Of a DNA stretch of 64,000 bases, positions 15,277 to 47,641 are shown piece after piece. The first letter of the stretch is position 1. Every line of letters starts with the position of its first letter. The stretch lies in assembly GCF_054482525.1 (NCBI RefSeq), contig NZ_CM137006.1; one strand, 5' to 3'. Made by a program: the position numbers and the translations under genes. The notes beneath the pieces were generated by a model. The model made no database searches, was not told where the DNA came from, and worked only from the letters and a program-made list of their open reading frames with translations.

Positions 15277-16009
15277 ATGAAAAAATGGAAAGTACGTAGC
15301 GCGTTGGTGGCATTAGTCGTGCTGCTGGCCGGTTGTTCCAGTAATGCGCAGTATAATAGCAGTGCATCAGGCAATGTCGGCACCGCCTGGGGGGGGGGAT
15401 GTACACTCATCGGTTCAGGGCGTATCTGCTGAACGAGTCTGGCGCGATCCGGCAGAGATGATCGTTATTAGTTATTCGACTACTGTTCCTTCGGGCTACG
15501 ACCGCGTTTATAGCATTCGTATTAACGAACTGGAATATGCTATTCGCGATGGTAATTTTAATTCTCTACCTATTACGCGGGTTTATGATTCATCAAATAA
15601 TGAACCACGCTATATTATCCATGCCAGAGTAGGAATGAATTATCAATTATATGTCCGTAATTACAGTCGTAACACCAACTACGAGATCGTTGCTACGGTT
15701 GATGGCCTGGATGTTCTGAATGGTAAACAAGGTTCGCTGAATAACAACGGTTATATTGTGAATGCCGGAGATTCGTTAGCGATTAAAGGATTTCGCAAAG
15801 ATAAACATACCGAAGCGGCTTTTCAGTTCGCCAACGTTGCTGATTCCTACGCAGCCAATTCGGCGCAAGGCGATGTGCGTAATACCGGGGTAATCGGCTT
15901 TGCCGCCTTTGAATTACAAGGCTCGGCGCAAAACGCGATGCCGCCGTGCTCTGGACAAGCCTTTCCGGCAGATAACAATGGCTATGCGCCGCCACCGTGT
16001 CGGAAATAG
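15277..16009 (+). pseudogene. Lipoprotein gene interrupted by a frameshift at a G10 homopolymer; lipoprotein signal peptide in frame 1, ~200 aa mature domain in frame 2
   Basis: GAGGGA RBS, ATG 15277, MKKWKVRSALVALVVLLAGC lipobox; frame 1 stops at 15430-15432; removing one G from the 15389-15398 tract fuses it to ORF 15344..16009; no recognised domain in mature part. Confidence 0.55.
15389..15398. repeat. Homopolymeric G10 tract inside the lipoprotein coding sequence
   Basis: Ten consecutive G read directly from the sequence. Confidence 0.95.
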
Positions 16010-20162: not shown

Positions 20163-20188
20163 GGGCCGCGAAAGCGGCCCTTTTTTAC
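20163..20188 (+). terminator. Rho-independent terminator after tktA
   Basis: GGGCCGCGAAAGCGGCCC followed by TTTTTT; the convergent SPFH gene stop codon lies in the T-run. Confidence 0.6.
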
Positions 20189-21093
20189 TTGGTGGAGATA
20201 AACGGAACTGTGCTGCCGGGGATCATGGTATCGGGTAGCTTACCGTCCCAACGCTCTGCAGTGGTTAGGGCAACAAGTCCGGGATTATCCCGCAGAGCTT
20301 CACCGCGCAGGCGGATAGCTTCTGCTTCAGCCGCACTTTTTAAACGAATAGTTTCAGCCTCTGCCGCGCCTCTTACGCGAATAGTCTCAGCTTCTGCTTT
20401 GGCTGCCGCCAGTTTACTGTCTGCTTCAGCCTGGGCCTGAGTTACTGCTATTTGCGCCTGGATTTTCTCTGTTTCCAGATTTTGCCTACGAGTAGCAATT
20501 GCAACTTCCGCTTTCATTCGGTCTTCAATCGATTTTTCATAAGCATCTGAAAAATCGATATTCTCGATCTGAACTCCGTCTATCACTACCGGGCCAACAA
20601 CCGCTTTGCGCATCGCGTTTTGCAGATCCTGCACCAGTTTCGTACGATCTTGTACTGCGCTAATGGCTGTATATTGCCCGAAAACGTTCTCCAGTTGGGT
20701 TGGCAGCTGGCGGACGATCAGACGCTCTTTTAAAGATTCAATGGTGTTGTAGGTTGTATAAACTGCGCCAGCTTCTGAAGGTTTAATGTGGAAGCTGACT
20801 GATACTGTCATTTGTGCCGGTTGCTGGTCGCGGCTGTAGGCCTGTAATCCCTGATAGACCACAGCCTGATTACGCGTGGAAATTTTCTCCACGCTTTCCA
20901 TAAAAGGGATCTTAAAACCCAGCCCCGGCTCGGCAACTTTTACGATTTTTCCGTAGCGCAGCAAAATGCCGCGTTCACCTTCATTAACGGTGTAATACGA
21001 GAGAAATGGCAGCACAACCACGGCAAGCACGCCAATGACGATAGCAATAGATTTTTGTGGGCGAAATGAGGTTATTGAAACAGGTGCTTTCAT
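20185..21093 (-). CDS. SPFH/band-7 (prohibitin/HflC-like) membrane protein, ~302 aa, with C-terminal Ala/Glu-rich tandem repeats
   Basis: ATG(rc) 21093 with AAGGAAG RBS; N-terminal TM helix IAIVIGVLAVVVLPFL; SPFH-like core; three 11-aa repeats EAETIRVRGAA/EAETIRLKSAA/EAEAIRLRGEA. Confidence 0.75.
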   Translation of the reverse strand: MKAPVSITSFRPQKSIAIVIGVLAVVVLPFLSYYTVNEGERGILLRYGKIVKVAEPGLGFKIPFMESVEKISTRNQAVVYQGLQAYSRDQQPAQMTVSVSFHIKPSEAGAVYTTYNTIESLKERLIVRQLPTQLENVFGQYTAISAVQDRTKLVQDLQNAMRKAVVGPVVIDGVQIENIDFSDAYEKSIEDRMKAEVAIATRRQNLETEKIQAQIAVTQAQAEADSKLAAAKAEAETIRVRGAAEAETIRLKSAAEAEAIRLRGEALRDNPGLVALTTAERWDGKLPDTMIPGSTVPFISTK

Positions 21094-33293: not shown

Positions 33294-33300
33294 TATTTGT

Positions 33301-33330
33301 AGCCCGACGTATTCGTCGGGCTAATGCCTT
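33301..33330 (+). terminator. Rho-independent terminator after yggE
   Basis: AGCCCGACG-TATT-CGTCGGGCT stem. Confidence 0.5.
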
Positions 33331-33460
33331 TACCCGATATTGCCTCCTTTTTCTGTAATTTTCTGTAAAACCATGACGTAATCACCTATCTTTGCTCGCG
33401 GTTTCATCAAGGATAGGCTGACTGAAACGGTTAAGCGGACAAGGATGCGGGGGAGGGGGT

Positions 33461-34357
33461 ATGGACATTTTTATTTCGAAAAAGATGCGCAATTTCATTT
33501 TATTAGCGCAAACCAATAATATTGCCCGGGCGGCAGAAAAAATCCATATGACGGCTTCGCCATTTGGTAAAAGCATTGCCGCGCTGGAAGAACAAATTGG
33601 CTATACGCTATTTACCCGCAAAGATAATAATATCAGCCTCAATAAAGCCGGACAGGAACTGTATCAAAAACTGTTCCCGGTTTATCAACGACTTTCTGCG
33701 ATTGATAATGAAATCCATAACTCAGGGCGTCGTTCACGAGAAATTGTGATTGGCATAGATAATACTTATCCGACAATTATTTTCGATCAGTTGATTAGTC
33801 TCGGAGATAAGTATGAAGGCGTGACCGCCCAGCCAGTTGAGTTCAGCGAAAACGGCGTTATCGATAATCTTTTTGACCGCCAGTTAGATTTTATTATCTC
33901 CCCACAGCATGTATCTGCACGAGTTCAGGAACTGGAAAACCTGACTATCAGTGAACTACCACCGCTGCGATTAGGCTTTCTCGTTTCTCGCCGTTATGAA
34001 GAGCGTCAAGAGCAAGAGCTGCTTCAGGAGCTGCCCTGGCTACAAATGCGCTTTCAGAACCGGGCCAACTTCGAAGCAATGATTGATGCGAATATGCGAC
34101 CTTGTGGGATCAATCCAACCATTATTTATCGTCCCTACAGTTTTATGGCCAAAATCAGCGCCGTGGAGCGCGGACATTTTCTGACGGTGATCCCGCATTT
34201 TGCCTGGCGACTGGTGAATCCGGCAACGCTGAAATATTTTGATGCGCCGCACAGGCCGATGTATATGCAGGAATATCTTTATTCAATCAGAAATCATCGT
34301 TATACCGCCACGATGCTTCAGCATATTGCTGAAGATCGTGACGGGACGAGTCATTAA
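33461..34357 (+). CDS. ygfI: LysR-family transcriptional regulator YgfI, 298 aa
   Basis: N-terminal HTH and LysR substrate-binding domain; convergent with scpC. Confidence 0.8.
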   Translation: MDIFISKKMRNFILLAQTNNIARAAEKIHMTASPFGKSIAALEEQIGYTLFTRKDNNISLNKAGQELYQKLFPVYQRLSAIDNEIHNSGRRSREIVIGIDNTYPTIIFDQLISLGDKYEGVTAQPVEFSENGVIDNLFDRQLDFIISPQHVSARVQELENLTISELPPLRLGFLVSRRYEERQEQELLQELPWLQMRFQNRANFEAMIDANMRPCGINPTIIYRPYSFMAKISAVERGHFLTVIPHFAWRLVNPATLKYFDAPHRPMYMQEYLYSIRNHRYTATMLQHIAEDRDGTSH

Positions 34358-35832
34358 CCCAGCATCGAGCCGGTTGCAATTAAATTACGGTGTAAATCGA
34401 AGACGTGGCTAAGATCGTGGTGAATATGTCCGCCGGGCGCATTTTCCAGATAGCGATGCAGATAATCCCGATACATAGGATGTGCACAATTATCAATGAT
34501 AGTGCGGGCGCGTTGAAGCGGGGAAAGACCACGCAGATCGGCGATGCCTTGTTCGGTGATGATCACTTTGACGCTGTGTTCGCTGTGATCAACATGGCTG
34601 CACATTGGCACGACGGTTGAGATCTTGCCTTCTTTAGCAATCGACGGGGCCATAAAGATCGACAGATACGCGTTGCGTTCAAAATCACCGCTGCCACCGA
34701 TGCCGTTCATCAGATCGACCCCGGCTACGTGCGTTGAGTTGGCATGCCCGTAAATATCAAACTCCAGGCCGACGTTCAGAGCGATGACGCCCAGACGACG
34801 GATGATTTCCGGGTTATTGGAAATCTCCTGCGGACGCAACACAATGCGGCTGGCAAAGTAATCCATATTGTCGTAAATCTTGCGCAGGGAATCGGCCGAG
34901 ATAGTCAGGCTGGAGGCGCTGGCCCCGCTGATTTTGCCCGTTTCCAGTAAATGCACCACCGATTCCTGTAGCACTTCCGAATACATCATGAACGGAGGAA
35001 TTTCCGGATTTTCCCCCAGACGCGCCATTACCGCATTATTGATGTTGCCCACGCCACTTTGCAGCGGCAGAAATTCCGGCGGAATACGCCCATGCGCCAT
35101 TTCCTGCAACAAGAACGTGACCACGTTATCGGCAATCTGCTGGCACATGGGATTTTGCTTATCCAGCATATTACCGGCGTCGGGCAAGTTGGTTTCCACG
35201 ACGGCGACAATCTTTTTCGGATCGATTTGCACATAGCGGGTACCGACGCGATCCATTGCATGGAAGATCGACACGCTATTGCGCCGCGGTGGTGCGCCAG
35301 GAATCACAATATCTGCCAGTTCTGCAACGCGCGGATCGTGATAGTGATTGAGTTCAATGATCACTTTCTTCGCCCGCAGCAGCCAGGTCGGCGCATTACC
35401 GATCCCGCTGGTTAACCAGACTCGACCATCCGGTGCCAGTGCCGATGCTTCAATGACGGCAACATCAATTTCGCCGAAGAAACCGTAATTGACCATTTGC
35501 GCCACTTCGCTCAAATGCAGGTCAACGAAACTCACCGCGCCCTGATTGATCTTTTTACGTAAACCGGACGATGTTTGATATGGCGCACGCCAGGAAACAG
35601 CATCGGCGTCAGAAAGTACATCGTCAGCGGCGGCGCTGATTGACGCCCCCGTCAGCAGGCGGATTTGATACGGCTTTTTGGCCTCATGCTGTTCGTTAGC
35701 TCTGCGGGCAATCGCGGTGGGAAGGGCTTTCGGCGAACCCGCCGGGGTAAAGCCGCTAAATGCCACCATGTCGTTATGCTGGATAATTTCTGCCGCTTCA
35801 TCGGCGGTCATCCTTGTCCACTGAGTTTCCAT
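34354..35832 (-). CDS. scpC: Propionyl-CoA:succinate CoA-transferase ScpC (YgfH), 492 aa
   Basis: Full ORF; matches K-12 ScpC. Confidence 0.9.
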   Translation of the reverse strand: METQWTRMTADEAAEIIQHNDMVAFSGFTPAGSPKALPTAIARRANEQHEAKKPYQIRLLTGASISAAADDVLSDADAVSWRAPYQTSSGLRKKINQGAVSFVDLHLSEVAQMVNYGFFGEIDVAVIEASALAPDGRVWLTSGIGNAPTWLLRAKKVIIELNHYHDPRVAELADIVIPGAPPRRNSVSIFHAMDRVGTRYVQIDPKKIVAVVETNLPDAGNMLDKQNPMCQQIADNVVTFLLQEMAHGRIPPEFLPLQSGVGNINNAVMARLGENPEIPPFMMYSEVLQESVVHLLETGKISGASASSLTISADSLRKIYDNMDYFASRIVLRPQEISNNPEIIRRLGVIALNVGLEFDIYGHANSTHVAGVDLMNGIGGSGDFERNAYLSIFMAPSIAKEGKISTVVPMCSHVDHSEHSVKVIITEQGIADLRGLSPLQRARTIIDNCAHPMYRDYLHRYLENAPGGHIHHDLSHVFDLHRNLIATGSMLG

Positions 35833-35855
35833 TTTTACTCCTTCGTTCGCAGGGA

Positions 35856-36641
35856 TTAATGACCAACGAAATTAGGTTTACGTTTTTCGAGGAAAGCGTT
35901 CATCCCTTCCTGGTAGTCTTCGCTGTCATAAACCGCGCGGCGCATCCCCTGAATACGTTCAAATTCATCGGAGTTCATGGTGTGCGCTTCGCCCAGTACA
36001 CGCAGCTCTTCTTTGATAACGGCAATGGCTAACGGCGCTTTCTCAGAGATGTGGTGCGCCATTTGTAAGGTGAAATCTTCCAGTTCTTCCACTTCCACAA
36101 CATGGTTGAGGATGCCGACAGCCAGCGCGCGCTGGGCGGTGATTGGCGAAGCGGTAAAAATCAGCTCTTTGACAATGTGGAAGCCCGCGTCGCGGGTCAG
36201 GTTGTGAATGCCGACCAGGTTATACGGGACACCGAGGTTTACAGGTGTCATTGAGAAGGTTGAGGTACTGGCGGCGATAATCAGATCGGAACTCATGATC
36301 ATTTCAAATGCGCCACCCCAAACACTACCTTCCACCATCGAAATGATCGGTTTCGGGAATTTTTGGATCATGCGGGTGATTTGACGCAATGGATCATCAT
36401 AGGAGAGCGGATCGCGACCGCCAGACGGCAGTTCGTGAATATCGTGACCTGCGGAGAAGACTTTGGATCCACTCGGCGCGCGCAAAATGATACAGCGAAT
36501 TTCCGACCGGTTGAGATCGCTTAACGCCTGCATAAGATCATCGATAAAGACTTTACTTAAGGCATTAAGTTTGCGGCCATAGTTAAACTCAATGACCGCC
36601 ACTTTGTTGATAGTGGCAACGTTCACATACTGATAAGACAT
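35856..36641 (-). CDS. scpB: Methylmalonyl-CoA decarboxylase ScpB (YgfG), 261 aa
   Basis: Start MSYQYVNVATINKVAVIEFNYG at ATG(rc) 36641 with AAAGGA RBS; crotonase fold. Confidence 0.9.
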   Translation of the reverse strand: MSYQYVNVATINKVAVIEFNYGRKLNALSKVFIDDLMQALSDLNRSEIRCIILRAPSGSKVFSAGHDIHELPSGGRDPLSYDDPLRQITRMIQKFPKPIISMVEGSVWGGAFEMIMSSDLIIAASTSTFSMTPVNLGVPYNLVGIHNLTRDAGFHIVKELIFTASPITAQRALAVGILNHVVEVEELEDFTLQMAHHISEKAPLAIAVIKEELRVLGEAHTMNSDEFERIQGMRRAVYDSEDYQEGMNAFLEKRKPNFVGH

Positions 36642-36651
36642 AAAAATTCCT

Positions 36652-37647
36652 TTAATCAAAATATTGCGTCTGGATAAATTCACTGAGCTGCCGCAGGCCG
36701 GTGCGCGGTGAGAGCGTATTGTTTTTGACCGCTAAAAGCGTCTGGCTGTAATAGCGATCGAAATCTTCATTCGCGAACAGGTGATTCAGTACTTCTTCTT
36801 CGGTTTGTTTACGCAGCCATTCCACCGATTGTTGTTGCCGCACTTGTTGCAAACGACCACTGGCAGTTAGCGCGGTTTTGAAGTCGATGATGGCGTGCCA
36901 GATCTCATCGATTCCACGTTTTTCCAGTGCGCTACAAGTCAGAACCCGTGGCTGCCATTCGTCGTATTTACGTCGCAGAATATGCAGGGCACTCTCGTAC
37001 ATATGCCGGGCAATGGCGATATTGGTATGGTTATCGCCATCGTCTTTGTTGATAACGATCAGATCTGCCACTTCCATCAGCCCCTTTTTAATGCCCTGCA
37101 GATCATCGCCGCCACCGGCAATTTGCAACGAGATAAAACAGTCCACCATGCGGGCGACTTCCGTTTCTGACTGCCCGACGCCAACCGTTTCGACAATCAC
37201 TACGTCATAACCCGCCGCTTCGCATAACAGCATTAATTCCCGCGCTCGCTGACTGGCACCGCCCAGATGGCCGGAGGAGGGTACCGGGCGAATAAACGCC
37301 GCCTCGGCACGCGCAAGGTCATTCATGCGGGTTTTATCCCCGAGAATGCTACCGCCAGTGACCGGGCTGCTGGGATCGACCGCAATAACCGCAACCTTTA
37401 ATCCCTCACGAATCAACAACATGCCAAAGGCTTCAAGAAAGGTACTTTTCCCCGCGCCGGGTGTGCCGGTAACGCCCAGTCGCAGGGCGTTACCACAGAA
37501 CGGCATAATGGCGTCAAGCAGCTGTGTACTTAGCGCCTGATGACGCGGGTGACGGCTTTCCACCAACGTCATGGCCTGGGCGAGCGTGGCACGCTCACCC
37601 TGACGTAAGCGGCGAATACTTTCTGCCAGCGTGGCTTCATTAATCAT
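36652..37647 (-). CDS. argK: Methylmalonyl-CoA mutase-associated GTPase ArgK/MeaB (YgfD), 331 aa
   Basis: P-loop GTPGAGKST; overlaps scpA stop by 8 nt. Confidence 0.9.
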
Positions 37648-39784
37648 GATGCTGGCTTATCAGATTCAGTACGTCGCGCACGCTGTCGAGCATAGGTGTA
37701 CCTGGACCATAAATCGCCGCCACGCCGCGATCTTGCAGGAAGGCGTAATCCTGCGGCGGAATGACGCCACCCGCGACCACGCAGATATCTTTGCGTCCCC
37801 ATTTTTTCAGCGCTTCGACCAGTTCCGGGATCAGCGTTTTATGACCGGCAGCCAGTGAGGATGCGCCCACTACGTGGACGTCGTTTTCTACGGCCAGGCG
37901 GGCGATCTCTTCAGGTGTAGAGAACATCGGGCTTAAATCTACGTCGAAACCGAGATCGGAATAGGCGCTGGCGATCACTTTCGCGCCGCGATCGTGCCCA
38001 TCCTGGCCCATTTTAGCGATCAGAATGCGCGGGCGACGACCATTGTCGGCAAGGAACTGCTCCGTTTGCGCAACAATGGCATCGAACTCGGAGGCCGATT
38101 TCTCAGACTGATGATAGCTTTGCGCAATCACGCCGGTAACACACTGGCTTGGCACCAGATAACGGTCGAAAGCGGCTTCCAGCGCATCGGAAATTTCACC
38201 CAGGGTGGCGCGAACGCGAGCAGCATTAACAGCGGCAGCCAGCAGGTTTTCGTTATGCTGTGCGGCGTGAGTCAGGGCGTTCAACGCGGCGGTTACGGCG
38301 GCATCATCACGGGTGGCGCGAATGCGTTCCAGCGAAGCAATTTGCTCGTTACGCACCATCACGTTGTCGATCTCAAGTACATCGGTTTCGTCTTCGTGAT
38401 CCAGTTTGTACTTGTTGACACCAACGATGACACGCTTGCCCTGGTCGATCAGCGACTGTTCGCGCGCTGAGGCCTCTTCGATCATTCGTTTTGGCAGACC
38501 TGCTTCGATCGCTTTCGCCATACCACCGGCTTCGTCGATCTGTTGGATAATAGCTCTGGCTTGTTTGACGATTTGATCGGTCAGCGACTCAACGTAATAG
38601 GATCCGGCCAGTGGATCGACGGTGCGGCAGAGTTCTGATTCTTCCTGAATGATGATCTGGGTATTGCGGGCAATGCGTGCTGAGAAATCGGTAGGCAAAC
38701 CAAGCGCTTCATCAAAGGCGTTGGTATGCAGTGACTGAGTACCGCCCAGCGTTGCAGCCAGTGCTTCAATGGTGGTGCGGATAACGTTGTTATACGGATC
38801 CTGTTCAGTCAGGCTCCAGCCTGAGGTCTGGCAGTGGGTACGCAGCGCCAGTGATTTCGGATCCTGTGCGCCAAATCCACTGACCGCTTCGCTCCATAAA
38901 TAACGTGCCGCACGCAACATGGCGACGTTCATAAACAGATCCATGCCAATGCCGAAGAAGAACGACAGGCGAGGAGCGAAGTCATCAATTTTCAGCCCAG
39001 CGGATATTGCTGCTTTGATGTACTCAATCCCATCGGCGAGCGTAAATGCTACCTGCTGCACGCAGTTGGCACCCGCTTCACCCATGTGGTAACCGCTGAT
39101 ACTGATGGTATTAAATCGCGGCATGTTGCCGGAACACCAGGCGATGATGTCGGCGATAATGCGCATTGACGGTTTTGGCGGGTAAATATAGGTGTTGCGG
39201 CAGAGGTACTCTTTGAGGATATCGTTTTGAATGGTGCCGGTCAGTTTATCAGGTGTAACACCTTGCTCTTCCGCGGCGACGATATAAAACGCCAGTACTG
39301 GTAGCACTGCGCCATTCATGGTCATCGAAACCGACATTTTATCCAGCGGGATCTGGTCGAACAGGACTTTCATATCTTCCACGGTGTCGATAGCGACGCC
39401 CGCTTTGCCGACGTCGCCCGCCACGCGTGGGTTATCGGAGTCGTAGCCTCGGTGGGTGGCAAGGTCAAACGCAACGGAAAGGCCTTTTTGCCCGGCGGCC
39501 AGGTTACGGCGATAAAAAGCGTTGGACTCTTTTGCTGTTGAAAAACCAGCATACTGACGGATGGTCCACGGTTGGGCGGTATACATAGTGGCACGCGGGC
39601 CACGAACGTAGGGAGGCAAACCAGGAAGGGTACCTGTCACCTCCAGATTATCGAGATCGGCTTCGGTATACAGCGGCTTGATGGCGATCCCTTCCGCGGT
39701 TTGCTGAACCAGCGAGTCGACAGTTTTCTCCCGACGGCTCAATTCCTTGTTGGCAAGCTGTTGCCACTCCTGCACGTTAGACAT
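37640..39784 (-). CDS. scpA: Methylmalonyl-CoA mutase ScpA (Sbm), 714 aa
   Basis: Start [20 protein letters not shown] at ATG(rc) 39784; B12-binding C-terminal domain. Confidence 0.9.
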
Positions 39785-39987
39785 TATTTGCTCCGTAAAA
39801 CGCAATCAAAATGAGGGTATTTGCGCCTACGGTGAGCTTTTTACGTGGGTTTGTCGCCAGCAAAAAAAATGCATTCAGACGTCGTTTTTTGCCGCCTGAG
39901 ATTTGTCTATTTTGTGATGTGATTCAAGGAATACAAAAAGAAGTGAGGACAACGCCTGATATGTGCTATCAGGCATTATTTGATGGA

Positions 39988-40881
39988 TTAATCCTGACGA
40001 AGGACTTTGTGACCATAATCGAGTAACGCATCAGTGACTTTACGCATCATGCGGCTTTCAGGAGCAAAGCGGTGCCAGTAGAGCATCCGTCGTTGAAATA
40101 GCCCAGGCGTTAAGTCAATCAGTTCACCGCTGGCCAGCTCTTTCTCGATTTGCAGGTGCGGGATCATACAGCAGGTGGTGCCCTGGCGAGCAAGTTGCAC
40201 GAACGCTTCTGAAGAATTAACAATATGGCACGGTACGCTGCCTGGGGGCAGATCGAAGTTTTGCTGCAAAAAGGCCTGGTGCATATCGTCAAGATGGTCA
40301 AAGGCGACCACTGGCGCTTTTAGCAGAGCCGAACGCGTTACGCCGTTAGGGAAATATTTTTCGGCAAACGGTTTTGAGCTGACGAATAGATAGTCGAGCG
40401 CACCGAGCTTATCGACAAGACAACTCGGCAGCGCCTGATGTTGAATACTCACCGCGCCGACCACTTCGCCGCGGCGCAGACGTTCCTGAGTGCGGGTTTC
40501 ATCTTCTACCTGCAAGTTGAGGCGGATAGGCGAATCAGCTAACACAGGAGCCAGCGCCGGAAGCAACCACGTCGCCAGACTGTCTGCGTTGACCGCCAGT
40601 GAAAGCAGCAGCGGAGTCGAACCGGTTTGTTCATCGCCCAGCCACTCTTCTTCCAGCAACTCCACCTGGCGCAGCAGTGCCAGCAGTTTTTGCCCTTGTT
40701 CTGTCGGGCGCGGCGGTACGGTACGCACCAACAGCGGCTGCCCGAACATATTTTCCAGTTGCTTAATGCGCTGTGAGACGGCTGATTGTGTAATGCACAG
40801 CTTTTGTGCCGCGCGCTCAAATCCTCGTTCACGTATCACCGCATCCAGTGCCTGTAATGTTCTGTAGTCCGGGCGTTTCAT
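39988..40881 (-). CDS. argP: LysR-family regulator ArgP (IciA), 297 aa
   Basis: Start [28 protein letters not shown] at ATG(rc) 40881; the 360 aa ORF-track version is an upstream extension. Confidence 0.9.
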
Positions 40882-40951: not shown

Positions 40952-42277
40952 TTAACGCATACAAAAACGGTCGAAATGGAAGTTTTGGCTGGCAATCCCA
41001 TTTTCATATAACCCTTTGCTGAGCGCTTTGGCAAAACTCTGTGGGCCGCAAAACCAGAAATGGGTGTCACCTTTATTTGCTATTTTATCAGTAAGATAGT
41101 GCACCTGTAGGCGCTCACCTTTATGCGCATCAAGCAGATGCAGTGTGACCCTGGCCTGGGCACAAAGTGAGGTCAGTTTATCAATATACCAGGCATCCTC
41201 GCTTCGGCTGACGCAATACCAGAGATCCACAGGAACAAAGGACGCGCCATGATGTTTACGATACTCAAGCTGGGCGATAAAGGGGGTAATGCCGATGCCT
41301 CCTGCTATCCAGACCTGGTGGGAGCAAGGGAGAGTAAAATCAAACTTTCCCCATGGCCCTTCAACGAAGGCGGACTGGCCGATTTTTATCGAGGATGCCA
41401 GAGTCGAGGTATAATCCCCTAAATGTTTGATCGCAAAGCGCAACGTGTTCTTCTCTTTGGTATATGAAGCGATAGTAAAAGGGTGAGATTCTTTACTGTG
41501 TGCGAACGTTAAGAATGCAAACTGCCCCGGAGAATAGTCGATGGCATGTTCCAGCTCAAGGGTGACTTCGGTAATTTGTCCCGGATGGTTAACAATGTTT
41601 TTAATGGTAGCCTGATGCTTGTTTTTACTACCGTTTAATTTCAGCAGCGAAATGAAAGCCGCAAAGACGCCCGGAATAGTAATTAAAATTAATAAATACG
41701 CAGCAGGAGTTTCCCACCAGTATGATTTAAACAAAGCAGTAAACACATGAAAGGCAATTGCCAGATAAAAGACGGGGAACAAACGGTGAACAAGATGAAA
41801 TAAATGATAGGGAACTCTTTTGCTAAGAGACACGAAAACCATCGCTATCATAATAAACATTGCACATTCACCCGCCAACAGTCCCGCATGAAGCCAATTT
41901 TCTTGTACTGGCGTCAGGTTAATATCAACGATTTTACCAGGGTGAGTAAGCCAGCCAAAGGCGACGAATAACTGGGGTAATTTTTCATCCAGCCAGTGGG
42001 CGAAAGCAAACGCTATGGCGCATATTCCTGCCCACTTATGTAATCGCCATGCTTTATCCAGACCGCCCAGCACTTTGTTAAGCCATGATGAACGCAACGA
42101 TAAACACATCGTCAGCGTCATCAGACACCACGCAAGGGTTCCCGTAAAAAAGAGTATGTTTTGTCGAAGGAACCATATTAGCGCGATTGGCTTTTCACGA
42201 AAAATATCACCGGACGACAAAAAAATAAGGCATGCGACAAAGCAAACCAACGTACCTGTAAGATTAGCTTTTTTCAT
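40952..42277 (-). CDS. NOX/ferric-reductase-like membrane flavocytochrome (6-TM bis-heme domain fused to FAD- and NAD(P)H-binding domains), 441 aa
   Basis: His pairs H-x13-H ([15 protein letters not shown]) and H-x12-H ([14 protein letters not shown]); FAD motif HPFTIAS; NAD motif GGIGITPF; C-terminal CGP motif; start codon uncertain (weak RBS). Confidence 0.7.
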
Positions 42278-42338
42278 TTTTTATTTCATTTTGGCAGCGG
42301 AGCATGGAATAACTCCATGCTCCCGTTAAACAGAGTGA

Positions 42339-42599
42339 TTATTTATAGAAAATCACAGTGGCGTGGATATAATTTTTACCGGAGAAAGAACTGATGTAGT
42401 AATTGCTGGCTTGTAACTCTTCCGCTTTCTCTTTAATTTGGCTTTCAACGCCCGCTGGATTGCTATTGTGTGTGGACATGCTCACTTTTGATAACTGTTC
42501 AAGATTATTGTCCGGTTTGTGTATCTCGGTTGCTGCAAATGCGTGTCCTGTGAGAGTGCAAAGAAATAATGCGGCAAATAAATTTTGCTTAATAGACAT
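42339..42599 (-). CDS. Small secreted DUF1471 (YdgH/BhsA/McbA-family) stress protein, 86 aa
   Basis: AAGGAG RBS; signal peptide MSIKQNLFAALFLCTLTGHAFA; C-terminal ...YISSFSGKNYIHATVIFYK resembles BhsA family ending. Confidence 0.65.
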   Translation of the reverse strand: MSIKQNLFAALFLCTLTGHAFAATEIHKPDNNLEQLSKVSMSTHNSNPAGVESQIKEKAEELQASNYYISSFSGKNYIHATVIFYK

Positions 42600-42615
42600 A
42601 ATAACTCCTTTTATA

Positions 42616-43245
42616 TTAAAGATAATGATTAAATACGTGTGTTATGAGATCAGGGATTTGCGCTAATGCATTTTGCTCGGCGAGTTCGCGTCCCGGTTGG
42701 GTTTTGTCGACGCCTTCCGCACGTAAAATATGTGTATTGGTAATGCCCATTAATTTCAGCGTGGCTTGCAGATAACTTTCCTGATGATCCAGCGCCAGAT
42801 GTGCTTCATCGCAATAGATACCGCCGCGCGTCGAGACAATAAACGTCGGTTTATCCGTCAGTAACCCAACGGCACCAGCGGAAGTAAAACGAAACGTTAA
42901 ACCAGCCTGACAGACCTGATCTATCCAGGTTTTGAGGCCAGATGAAACGCTGTGATTAATCATCGGCGCGCCAATAATGAGCACATCGCACGATGCCAGT
43001 TCATCAATAGCAGCGTGGATATCATTCACCTCCTGCTGAATTTGTGCGTTCTCGCACTCCGCTTTACCGCAAAGCGCCAGAAAGGTTTCTTCACGCAAAT
43101 GGGGTGGGGGCGTCAGGCCAACGTCGCGATGAATAATTGTGGCTTGCGCGAAACGTTGGCAAAGCGCTTCTACCAGCGCCTGGCTTAATTTCCGCGAACT
43201 TGAATGCTTAAGCATTGGACTGCTATCGATATGGAGAATTTTCAT
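42616..43245 (-). CDS. FMN-dependent NADH azoreductase/quinone reductase-like flavoprotein (AzoR/AcpD family), 209 aa
   Basis: Flavodoxin-like fold; MKILHIDSSP..., DVLIIGAPMINHSVSSGLKTWIDQV, FIVSTRGGIY parallel AzoR motifs. Confidence 0.7.
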   Translation of the reverse strand: MKILHIDSSPMLKHSSSRKLSQALVEALCQRFAQATIIHRDVGLTPPPHLREETFLALCGKAECENAQIQQEVNDIHAAIDELASCDVLIIGAPMINHSVSSGLKTWIDQVCQAGLTFRFTSAGAVGLLTDKPTFIVSTRGGIYCDEAHLALDHQESYLQATLKLMGITNTHILRAEGVDKTQPGRELAEQNALAQIPDLITHVFNHYL

Positions 43246-43322
43246 GGGGTTGCTCTCATTTCTGCGATGAGAGAAGTTTAATTGTTGTTGATATGGTGAT
43301 TAAATAGACATAATTGAACTTC

Positions 43323-43344
43323 ATTGTTGTGAAAATAGAACAAT
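43323..43344. promoter_or_regulatory. Candidate LysR-type binding box (ATTGTT-N10-AACAAT) in the divergent promoter region
   Basis: Perfect 6-bp inverted repeat with 10-bp spacer ending 2 bp before the LysR start codon. Confidence 0.3.
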
Positions 43345-43345
43345 C

Positions 43346-44242
43346 ATGATCGACTGGAATGATTACTACTACTTTGCCCTGATTGCCGATGAAGGCAGCT
43401 ACAGCCAGGCGGCGCTGCGTGCGGGTGTGTCGAAATCGGTATTAAGCCGTCGAATGGCAGCGCTGGAAGAGCGCCTCGGCGTGAGGCTTATTCAGCGAAC
43501 TACGCGGCGTCTGGCCCTGACGGCGGCAGGGGAACAGTTTGCTGTCGAGTGTCGGGCGCTGGTGGCTCAGGGGGAACGGGCCAGAGCGGTGGTGATGGCC
43601 GCCCAGGAAAGCCCACAGGGAATGCTGCGCGTCAGCGCGCCGGTATTTATGGCTGAAACATGGTTTGGTGAGTTCGTCAGTGAATTTATCGCCCGCTGGC
43701 CCCTGGCGAAGGTGCAACTGCTGGCAATTAATCGCCCGGTGGATATGGTCGCTGAAGGCATTGATATTGCGCTGGTTACGGCTTCCGGCGCGCTTGCGGA
43801 CTCGACGCTGCATTATAAAAAATTACATACCCAGGCTGATATTTTAGTTGCCAGTTCGCAGTGGCTGGCCCGCCATCCGCAGGTGAAGGCCATTGACGAT
43901 CTTAACCGCGTCGACGGGATCCTCCGCCTGACGAACAATGGCGGGAGCCAGTGGCAGTTAATGAATGGCGACCAGGAGATTACGCTGCATCCCGAGGCGC
44001 GTTTGCAGACAAATAACATTCGCATCATGTTGCAGGCAGTGCTTGGCGGGAATGGCGTGGCGTTATTGCCTCAATTTGCCTGTAAACAGGGGCTTGCCAA
44101 CGGTGAACTGGTGCGCCTGTTCGCACCGTGGAGCGGCATACCCAGACCGTTGTATGCTTTATTTGCCGGGCGAAAGGGGATGCCCGCCATTGCGCGATAT
44201 TTTATGGATGAGTTAACCACGCGGCTTGCCAACGGGGTCTGA
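43346..44242 (+). CDS. LysR-family transcriptional regulator, 298 aa (intact counterpart of the K-12 yqfE pseudogene position)
   Basis: [36 protein letters not shown]; divergent from the azoreductase-like operon. Confidence 0.8.
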
Positions 44243-46624: not shown

Positions 46625-46770
46625 GCTGTAACGGTAAAGCCCTCACCGAAGCGAGGGCTTAAAGGAGAAGGGTTATGATGCGACTTGTCATCATACTGAT
46701 TGTACTGTTACTCATAAGTTTGCCAGCTTATTAACAGTCAGTCACAGGGGAGGAGTAATCCTCCCTTACC
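46625..46770 (-). ncRNA. sibC: SibC antisense sRNA (antitoxin of ibsC); boundaries approximate
   Basis: Inferred from the ibsC ORF on the opposite strand, flanking hairpins and the K-12 fau-serA sib locus; ends not determinable from sequence alone. Confidence 0.4.
46675..46734 (+). CDS. ibsC: Type I toxin IbsC-like hydrophobic peptide, 19 aa
   Basis: AAGGAGAAG RBS; MMRLVIILIVLLLISLPAY closely resembles the Ibs toxin family. Confidence 0.6.
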   Translation: MMRLVIILIVLLLISLPAY

Positions 46771-46834
46771 CTTACTCACTAAATTAGGTTAAAGAATCAA
46801 CGATGTCAATCAGGGCGATGCAGGTGTGTCGCCC

Positions 46835-47455: not shown

Positions 47456-47641
47456 AGGGAATCTCCGAGATGCCGCCGCAGGCTGTAACCCTTGAACCCT
47501 TGGTTCAAGGTGAATGTGTCGTCGCAGTTTTAAGGCTTCTCGGACGGACCGAGCATGCTCACCAACCGCGGAGCGCCACATTCTTGTGGTATGAAATATC
47601 GGCTCAGGGGACTGGCCCGCTTGCGAACATCTCAGAGAAAT
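47456..47641 (-). ncRNA. ssrS: 6S RNA
   Basis: Reverse complement matches recalled 6S RNA (5' AUUUCUCUGAGAUGUUCGCAAGCGGGCC ... GGCAUCUCGGAGAUUCCCU 3'). Confidence 0.85.

Follow-up and report, generated by a model that had tools for sequence, protein, structure and literature searches.

Characterisation of the sbm ('sleeping beauty mutase') operon of Escherichia coli dates from 2000, and the operon is now a routine tool of metabolic engineering. Since E. coli has no de novo B12 synthesis, the pathway relies on corrinoid taken up from outside. In the cycle established in the literature, ScpC moves CoA from propionyl-CoA to succinate; ScpA, which needs adenosylcobalamin and has ArgK/MeaB as a G-protein chaperone, turns succinyl-CoA into methylmalonyl-CoA; and ScpB decarboxylates methylmalonyl-CoA to propionyl-CoA, for a net conversion of succinate to propionate and CO2. 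According to the accounts in PMC5512728 and PMC3850637, this cycle was reconstructed biochemically by Haller et al. 2000. In the same two papers the operon is silent or barely expressed, its promoter is weak or inactive and B12 has to be supplied, which bears out the first-pass annotation of the present locus as a known, normally silent and B12-dependent system.

We analysed a stretch of 64,000 nucleotides (the whole of which is meant by 'the window' below) that differs from E. coli SCU-102 by 7 nt in 64 kb and carries the same genes as the SCU-102 RefSeq annotation. Between argP and ygfI, the open reading frame list and alignment to K-12 place a co-oriented series of genes for a mutase, a MeaB-type GTPase, a crotonase-fold decarboxylase and a CoA transferase, in that order. 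This is very probably the sbm operon typical of E. coli, scpA-argK-scpB-scpC, intact and in the ancestral form, which is an already known, ordinary feature of the species and nothing new in itself. The genes are as follows.

37640..39784, minus strand: scpA (sbm), predicted adenosylcobalamin-dependent methylmalonyl-CoA mutase, 714 aa, 2145 nt
36652..37647, minus strand: argK (ygfD/meaB), predicted mutase G-protein chaperone, 331 aa, 996 nt
35856..36641, minus strand: scpB (ygfG), predicted biotin-independent crotonase-fold methylmalonyl-CoA decarboxylase, 261 aa, 786 nt
34354..35832, minus strand: scpC (ygfH), predicted propionyl-CoA:succinate CoA transferase, 492 aa, 1479 nt
33461..34357, plus strand: ygfI/srsR, LysR-family regulator, 897 nt, convergent with scpC

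Aligned base by base with K-12 MG1655, scpA, argK, scpB, scpC and srsR all begin with ATG, end with TAA, have zero internal stops and no frameshifts, and match the K-12 genes in length, in agreement with the initial claim that all four operon genes are intact. The overlapping stop and start of scpA and argK, likewise noticed at the outset, amounts to 8 nt (junction ATGATTAA), and the convergent scpC and srsR stops overlap by 4 nt in a palindromic TTAA. The K-12 sbm operon (scpA b2917, argK b2918, scpB b2919, scpC b2920, ygfI/srsR b2921) has the same order, orientation, lengths and overlaps, and the flanking argP and yggE are common to the two strains; on the far side of argP, by contrast, a four-gene cluster in the present strain takes the place of K-12's lone yqfE fragment. 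The Scp and ArgK proteins are 99.2–99.4% identical to those of K-12 and SrsR is 100% identical. In all there are 89 nt and 14 amino acid differences, the latter at variable sites (ScpA 5, ArgK 4, ScpB 2, ScpC 3, SrsR 0), and several of the differences represent the ancestral state as judged by outgroups; residue E277 of ScpC, for example, is nearer to the outgroup D than is the V of K-12. The GC content of the operon, 51–57%, is unremarkable and does not indicate recent transfer.

Family membership was assigned with NCBIfam models that have curated cut-offs, these being equivalogs for ScpA, ArgK, ScpB and SrsR and a subfamily model for ScpC, and the Pfam domains are consistent with the assignments. 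ScpA passes NF006944 (1251.7 bits, cut-off 876), contains the Pfam MM_CoA_mutase and B12-binding domains with the B12-binding motif DxHxxG present as DGHDRG at residue 595, and has the human and Propionibacterium MCM as its nearest solved structures. ArgK passes the MeaB model NF006958 (493.5 bits, cut-off 329), carries a Walker A P-loop, GTPGAGKS, at residue 61 and matches the solved E. coli YgfD structure (PDB 2p67) over its full length. ScpB passes NF008506 (486.6 bits, cut-off 257) with residues 1–261 of 261 aligned, and gives a full-length match to the solved E. coli YgfG structure (PDB 1ef8, E = 7e-171); a longer mechanical reading frame for scpB, from a GTG start at 36683, receives no support from the family model and was rejected. 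ScpC passes the YgfH subfamily model TIGR03458 (754.7 bits, cut-off 658.7). Finally, the description of ygfI as a convergent LysR gene holds: SrsR passes NF047842 (635 bits, cut-off 425) and has the Pfam HTH_1 and LysR substrate-binding domains.

The first-pass annotation had called this a succinate-to-propionate operon, a designation that stands as regards the identities and order of the genes, whereas the sufficiency of the four genes for that conversion is disputed, methylmalonyl-CoA epimerase being absent (PMC5512728). ScpA reportedly makes the (R)-enantiomer of methylmalonyl-CoA and the decarboxylase is thought to use the (S) form; propionate was formed from glucose only when an epimerase was added, and operon expression led to more propionate from amino acids and made isoleucine degradation possible (PMC5512728). 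Further, neither an epimerase nor a transporter nor any other conserved extra gene adjoins the operon and ygfI in any of seven non-syntenic loci inspected (0/7), whose flanks are unrelated. It is conceivable, although we consider it unlikely, that the genes are functional in a natural role other than succinate-to-propionate fermentation, either handling methylmalonyl-CoA and propionyl-CoA from amino-acid or odd-chain catabolism or working with an unlinked epimerase partner. The original reconstruction of the cycle, as cited in the papers above, argues against such a role, as do several engineering papers in which propionate or 1-propanol was obtained with the native genes.

That the operon is maintained by selection, as first suggested, is borne out by its pattern of substitution. 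Relative to K-12, dN/dS across the operon is 0.056, with 14 nonsynonymous and 75 synonymous differences (binomial p about 2e-33); relative to E. albertii it is 0.016–0.061, at a near-saturated dS of 0.64–1.15. These comparisons point to strong purifying selection, which means that lineages retaining the genes use them in some natural setting; other lineages, B2 among them, can do without them. Near full-length operons occur in 4273/5426 complete E. coli genomes (about 79%), so that integrity is the majority state in the species and no peculiarity of the present strain, and a single deletion of ~4.3 kb is common to 1114/5426 (about 20.5%), including the B2 strain CFT073. Since the operon is lost in about 21% of complete genomes overall, selection for it is not universal.

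The shared deletion is ancient; our literature search found no published description of it. The B2-type remnant, in CFT073 and PMV-1, lies at the same chromosomal position beside the same argP, with srsR intact and a nearly identical intergenic region (4 differences, as counted in PMV-1). It lacks the segment corresponding to window positions 34508–38765 as well as a further 53 nt and 28 nt, leaving a 927-nt 5′ fragment of scpA joined to a 153-nt 3′ piece of scpC, and none of these lesions occurs in the present window. Sporadic frameshifts are found in other lineages, in scpA of STEC17-190 and in scpC and scpB of O157:H7 (for O157:H7 see also PMC10758439). The deletion with its additional small losses, these frameshifts and the silence of the operon in the laboratory are what would be expected of a neutrally evolving relic that is turning into a pseudogene and is intact here by chance rather than by selection. 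We regard this as very improbable: the dN/dS values within E. coli and against E. albertii refute it for operon-bearing lineages, and the module of the operon plus ygfI is intact in many genera of Enterobacterales. Strong purifying selection despite laboratory silence, together with deletion throughout the B2-type lineage and disruption in some O157:H7 strains, suggests niche-specific use, the niche plausibly being B12- and succinate-rich gut conditions.

The control of the operon would be seated in the interval between argP and scpA, which contains the following features.

39988-40881, minus strand: argP, the gene upstream of scpA
39785-39987, minus strand: argP-scpA intergenic region, 203 nt, candidate seat of the operon promoter and leader
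39954..39974, minus strand: hairpin just past the argP stop, 8-bp stem, found by a plus-strand scan
39909..39928, minus strand: conserved block containing a putative CRP/FNR-like pair of half-sites, cTTGA-N6-TCACA
39852..39895, minus strand: two near-invariant blocks, GCGGCAAAAAACGACG and TTTTTTTTGCTGGCGACA, with the inverted repeat GCAAAAAA-N17-TTTTTTGC
39790..39837, minus strand: predicted leader hairpin whose 3′ arm holds the entire scpA Shine-Dalgarno sequence GGAG

The limits originally given for this interval are exact, but the sigma-70 promoter elements that were to be looked for there did not appear: a scan upstream of scpA found no sigma-70 match of at least 9/12 on the minus strand of the E. 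coli window, nor in Citrobacter or Klebsiella, and our literature search found no mapped scpA promoter or start site. A sigma-54 promoter was rejected, as the Citrobacter TGGCTA-N4-TTGC is wrongly spaced (N5 is needed) and E. coli is without the GG. By eye, and as speculation, E. coli and E. albertii have CATTTT where other genera have a −10-like hexamer, TATTTT. We infer that low expression would stem from a promoter that depends on an activator and has no sigma-70 consensus elements. The half-site pair, as TTTGA-N6-TCACA, is kept in Citrobacter, Klebsiella, Salmonella arizonae, Superficieibacter and Aeromonas; as the CRP/FNR-like pattern turns up 5 times in the window where 2.0 would be expected, a match is by itself weak evidence of a site. 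The hairpin past argP is probably a weak argP terminator, and its T-run is not adjacent on the minus strand, so read-through from argP may be possible.

Closer to scpA, both near-invariant blocks survive in large part in Kosakonia and Aeromonas, where the flanks are non-syntenic, and the right block alone is well kept in Y. aldovae; such conservation suggests a function. A leader peptide over the TTTTTTGCTGGCGACA block was considered and rejected, its length and stops varying between genera with no third-position pattern. The leader hairpin has a predicted minimum free energy of −14.9 kcal/mol (z = −2.5), with equivalents in Citrobacter (z = −4.3), Klebsiella (−2.9), Aeromonas (−5.05), Y. aldovae (−2.2) and UBA7338 (−1.6). 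In the hairpin alignment, 85% of cells are paired, versus 31–49% in slid controls, and 5 pairs are changed on both sides. Support for the hairpin is nevertheless moderate, because an equivalent is absent in Kosakonia and Sodalis and because RNAalifold, run on a gappy 18-sequence leader alignment, keeps just 5 outer pairs, the distant sequences with long loop insertions being misaligned. By pairing the scpA Shine-Dalgarno sequence, the hairpin would add to the low expression.

The 203 nt between argP and scpA are 100% identical to K-12, so expression is expected to be as low as in K-12 under laboratory conditions; this identity is not valid on its own as proof of constraint, as the identical tract continues into both neighbouring genes, argP at its 3′ end and scpA at its 5′ end, and PMV-1 differs at 4 positions in the interval. 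The idea that a changed promoter or regulator has given this strain an activated, or 'awake', operon has next to no chance of being right: we found no evidence in its favour, ArgP, SrsR and the upstream sequence all equal their K-12 counterparts, there is no IS element or insertion and gene spacing is that of K-12. This refutes changes in cis at the sequence level and leaves only a trans-acting difference at some other genomic site.

An intact operon that is silent in the laboratory may instead be tightly conditional rather than cryptic. In 21/23 related loci, which are all those that extend far enough, ygfI/srsR adjoins scpC convergently, eight of them with unrelated flanks; the five genes including ygfI thus stay together in Enterobacterales and in one Aeromonas, also in loci with different flanks. 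On the plus strand, the left leader block reads TCGTTTTTTGC (39882-39892) and matches the published SrsR box TCAGATTTTGC at 8/11 positions (PMC9181523); it is near-invariant across genera, but the window holds 10 occurrences of TCNNNTTTTGC where 4.4 are expected. The scp genes go unmentioned in the SrsR paper, and scpA is not on its gSELEX list. As a tentative proposal, to which we give a minority of our belief, YgfI/SrsR could be a dedicated regulator co-inherited with the operon as a five-gene module and acting at GCAAAAAA-N17-TTTTTTGC (39860-39892), with the leader hairpin (39790-39837) as a translational lock that pairs the scpA Shine-Dalgarno sequence. If this is true, laboratory silence would reflect a missing inducer and not a dead promoter. 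Both the conserved leader and the inheritance of ygfI together with the operon provide testable handles on why the operon 'sleeps'.

The locus can be set beside two kinds of known system. Like a cobalamin riboswitch, it places a conserved, structured 5′ leader before the gene of a B12-dependent enzyme; only one hairpin, that pairing the Shine-Dalgarno sequence, is supported, however, and a cobalamin riboswitch was rejected, as the leader is too short and does not match the Rfam covariance model of that riboswitch. Rfam families as a whole gave no hits in the leader at gathering score or E ≤10, bar two at chance level. The enzymes themselves resemble the methylmalonyl-CoA pathway of propionibacteria and the human MMUT–MMAA pair. 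The E. coli route differs in having no linked epimerase and in using the biotin-independent crotonase-fold ScpB in place of transcarboxylase. It likewise combines an AdoCbl-dependent mutase with a MeaB/MMAA G-protein chaperone: ArgK matches both MeaB and MMAA, and ScpA, like the human enzyme a single-polypeptide mutase, gives matches with E of about 1e-270 or better to human MMUT and the P. shermanii alpha chain.

The sbm operon is correctly identified; it is well known, already described, and here in its common intact state. The first-pass annotation had described four intact scp genes with overlapping scpA and argK and a convergent LysR gene, ygfI, and its coordinates proved exact, those of the intergenic region 39785–39987 included. 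The window is E. coli chromosome, with 7 differences in 64,000 positions between it and SCU-102 (NZ_CP051753.1), and gene calls agreed among an ORF list, the RefSeq annotation of SCU-102 and K-12 MG1655, and a base-by-base comparison. Each gene has its K-12 length:

33461–34357, plus strand, ygfI/srsR
34354–35832, minus strand, scpC
35856–36641, minus strand, scpB
36652–37647, minus strand, argK/meaB
37640–39784, minus strand, scpA
39988–40881, minus strand, argP

All start with ATG, end with TAA and contain no internal stop. Between the scpA stop and the argK start there is an 8-nt overlap (ATGATTAA), and the convergent stops of scpC and srsR have TTAA in common. All five operon and regulator proteins pass curated NCBIfam models (methylmalonyl-CoA mutase, MeaB, methylmalonyl-CoA decarboxylase, YgfH-type succinate CoA transferase and SrsR), with Pfam domains in accord. 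ScpA, whose structure-search matches are human and Propionibacterium mutases, carries the B12-binding DxHxxG motif (DGHDRG, residue 595), ArgK has the P-loop GTPGAGKS, and ScpB and ArgK match the solved E. coli structures of YgfG (1ef8) and YgfD (2p67) over their full lengths. The four scp proteins differ from K-12 at 14 amino acids, at outgroup-variable positions or where the window carries the outgroup state (for example, ArgK A54 and F50, ScpA V398 and A537, and ScpC D11); at ScpC residue 277, the window's E is nearer to the outgroup D than is the V of K-12.

The annotation had also read the operon's integrity as a sign of selection. Selection is borne out: across the four genes, 75 synonymous and 14 nonsynonymous differences from K-12 give a dN/dS of 0.056 (binomial p ~2e-33 against neutrality), and values against E. 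albertii are 0.016–0.061, at dS 0.64–1.15. These values reflect long-standing, strong purifying selection, which is impossible for a never-expressed operon. Integrity, however, is common and no special property of this strain: 4,273 of 5,426 complete E. coli genomes keep 80% or more of the operon as a single piece. Only a 23% remnant is left in 1,152, and the deletion junction is identical to that of E. coli PMV-1 in 1,114; CFT073, the archetypal B2 strain, has the same remnant with srsR intact. This common deletion removes window positions 34508–38765, and the scpA remnant carries two further small deletions (53 nt and 28 nt); no published description of it was found in the literature searched. 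Scattered decay is seen in other genomes too; in STEC17-190, scpA is frameshifted. In E. coli O157:H7 AC-5, with a 28-nt insertion in scpC and an internal stop in the adjoining ygfI, operon and neighbouring regulator decayed jointly, and a published study describes indels in scpB and scpC in the O157:H7 tir 255A lineage (PMC10758439). Selection is thus strong in lineages keeping the operon and absent in some others, a pattern that fits a niche-specific function.

A ScpA scan of one genome per species gave 23 loci in Enterobacterales and Aeromonas, and scpA-argK-scpB-scpC is followed by convergent ygfI/srsR in every locus that reaches far enough; two short contigs stop before scpC. These are loci L006–L025, L029, L036 and L050, with scpA at ~8001 in most. 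Eight loci (Superficieibacter, two Kosakonia, Aeromonas RU39B, Sodalis, Yersinia aldovae, Acerihabitans and one MAG) lack adjoining argP and yggE and have flanks unrelated to one another, yet keep the ygfI arrangement. The heritable unit is therefore the five genes, which links YgfI/SrsR to the scp operon. More distant mutase loci are without scpB, scpC and ygfI. Proteins of the Aeromonas locus are 81–92% identical to those of E. coli, which suggests horizontal transfer of the module. Upstream of ygfI/srsR (33294–33460 and orthologous regions), blocks are conserved across genera, non-syntenic Superficieibacter included (TTCTGTGAnnAACTGTAAAA; a T-run then CG; GAGGATAnnCC). The sole SrsR study, by gSELEX, leaves the scp genes unmentioned (PMC9181523).

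A check for promoter elements upstream of scpA had been proposed, and a consensus scan of the scpA strand of 39785–39987 found no sigma-70-like site, nor one in the orthologous Citrobacter and Klebsiella regions; the scpA upstream region matched nothing in Rfam, the cobalamin riboswitch included. These 203 nt are identical to K-12, so strain-specific activation in cis is excluded. Because the identical tract runs longer, this identity alone is no evidence of constraint. In the cross-genus alignment, near-invariant blocks alternate with spacers that vary in sequence but not in length:

39909–39928, conserved CRP/FNR-like TTTGA-N6-TCACA
39880–39895, near-invariant left block, GCGGCAAAAAACGACG
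39852–39869, near-invariant block, TTTTTTTTGCTGGCGACA
39827–39842, near-invariant block, AAAAAGCTCACCGTA

Jointly, GCGGCAAAAAACGACG and TTTTTTTTGCTGGCGACA form an inverted repeat, GCAAAAAA-N17-TTTTTTGC. On the opposite strand the left block reads TCGTTTTTTGC, which shares 8 of 11 positions with the published SrsR box, TCAGATTTTGC, and also resembles weaker boxes in Table 1 of PMC9181523. Since such matches are frequent (the window has 10, where 4.4 are expected), this apparent likeness is a lead, not a finding.

A hairpin is predicted at 39790–39837, its 5′ arm formed by the AAAAAGCTCACCGTA block and its 3′ arm including the whole scpA Shine-Dalgarno GGAG. Its z-score is −2.5 in E. coli (−14.9 kcal/mol), −4.3 in Citrobacter, −2.9 in Klebsiella, −5.05 in Aeromonas, −2.2 in Y. 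aldovae and −1.6 in UBA7338, the last three with differing loop or stem sequences; Kosakonia and Sodalis have no equivalent. In an 18-sequence alignment, 85% of cells are paired, against 31–49% with the partner slid, and five pairs are changed on both sides; on the same gappy alignment, RNAalifold keeps only five outer pairs. The hairpin is moderately supported, and we infer that it plausibly contributes to low operon expression. That YgfI/SrsR and the conserved leader render the operon conditionally expressed instead of cryptic is a rather doubtful proposition; if true, E. coli physiologists and metabolic engineers would find it moderately interesting.

Elsewhere in the window, a four-gene cluster (40952–44242; GC 42–47%, below its surroundings) lies between argP and rpiA:

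40952–42277, minus strand, ferredoxin-reductase family gene
42339–42599, minus strand, DUF1471 gene
42616–43245, minus strand, FMN-dependent NADH-azoreductase gene
43346–44242, plus strand, divergent full-length LysR regulator

At this position K-12 and CFT073 have just a 231-nt LysR fragment (yqfE) and so appear to carry a deletion. A SibC-type antitoxin RNA opposite an Ibs toxin gene and, nearby, 6S RNA (ssrS) are full-length Rfam matches (46659–46809 and 47458–47641), both expected at a K-12-like position. Between speB and speA (~15277–16009) lies a 733-nt 'hypothetical protein', annotated as frameshifted in SCU-102. The window also has a prohibitin-family gene flanked by cmtB and tkt (~20185–21093), and its start truncates a TRAP-transporter substrate-binding gene (1–346); K-12 presumably has neither at these positions.

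In the established pathway, ScpC converts succinate and propionyl-CoA to succinyl-CoA, ScpA, using AdoCbl and chaperoned by ArgK, isomerises this product to methylmalonyl-CoA, and ScpB decarboxylates methylmalonyl-CoA to propionyl-CoA (PMC5512728, PMC3850637). No epimerase gene stands beside the module in any related locus inspected. The native pathway may be incomplete, because a methylmalonyl-CoA epimerase had to be added before propionate was made from glucose (PMC5512728). The literature agrees with the operon's earlier description as a known, normally silent, B12-dependent route: it is hardly expressed, possibly from an inactive or weak promoter, and cobalamin must be supplied to E. coli (PMC3850637).
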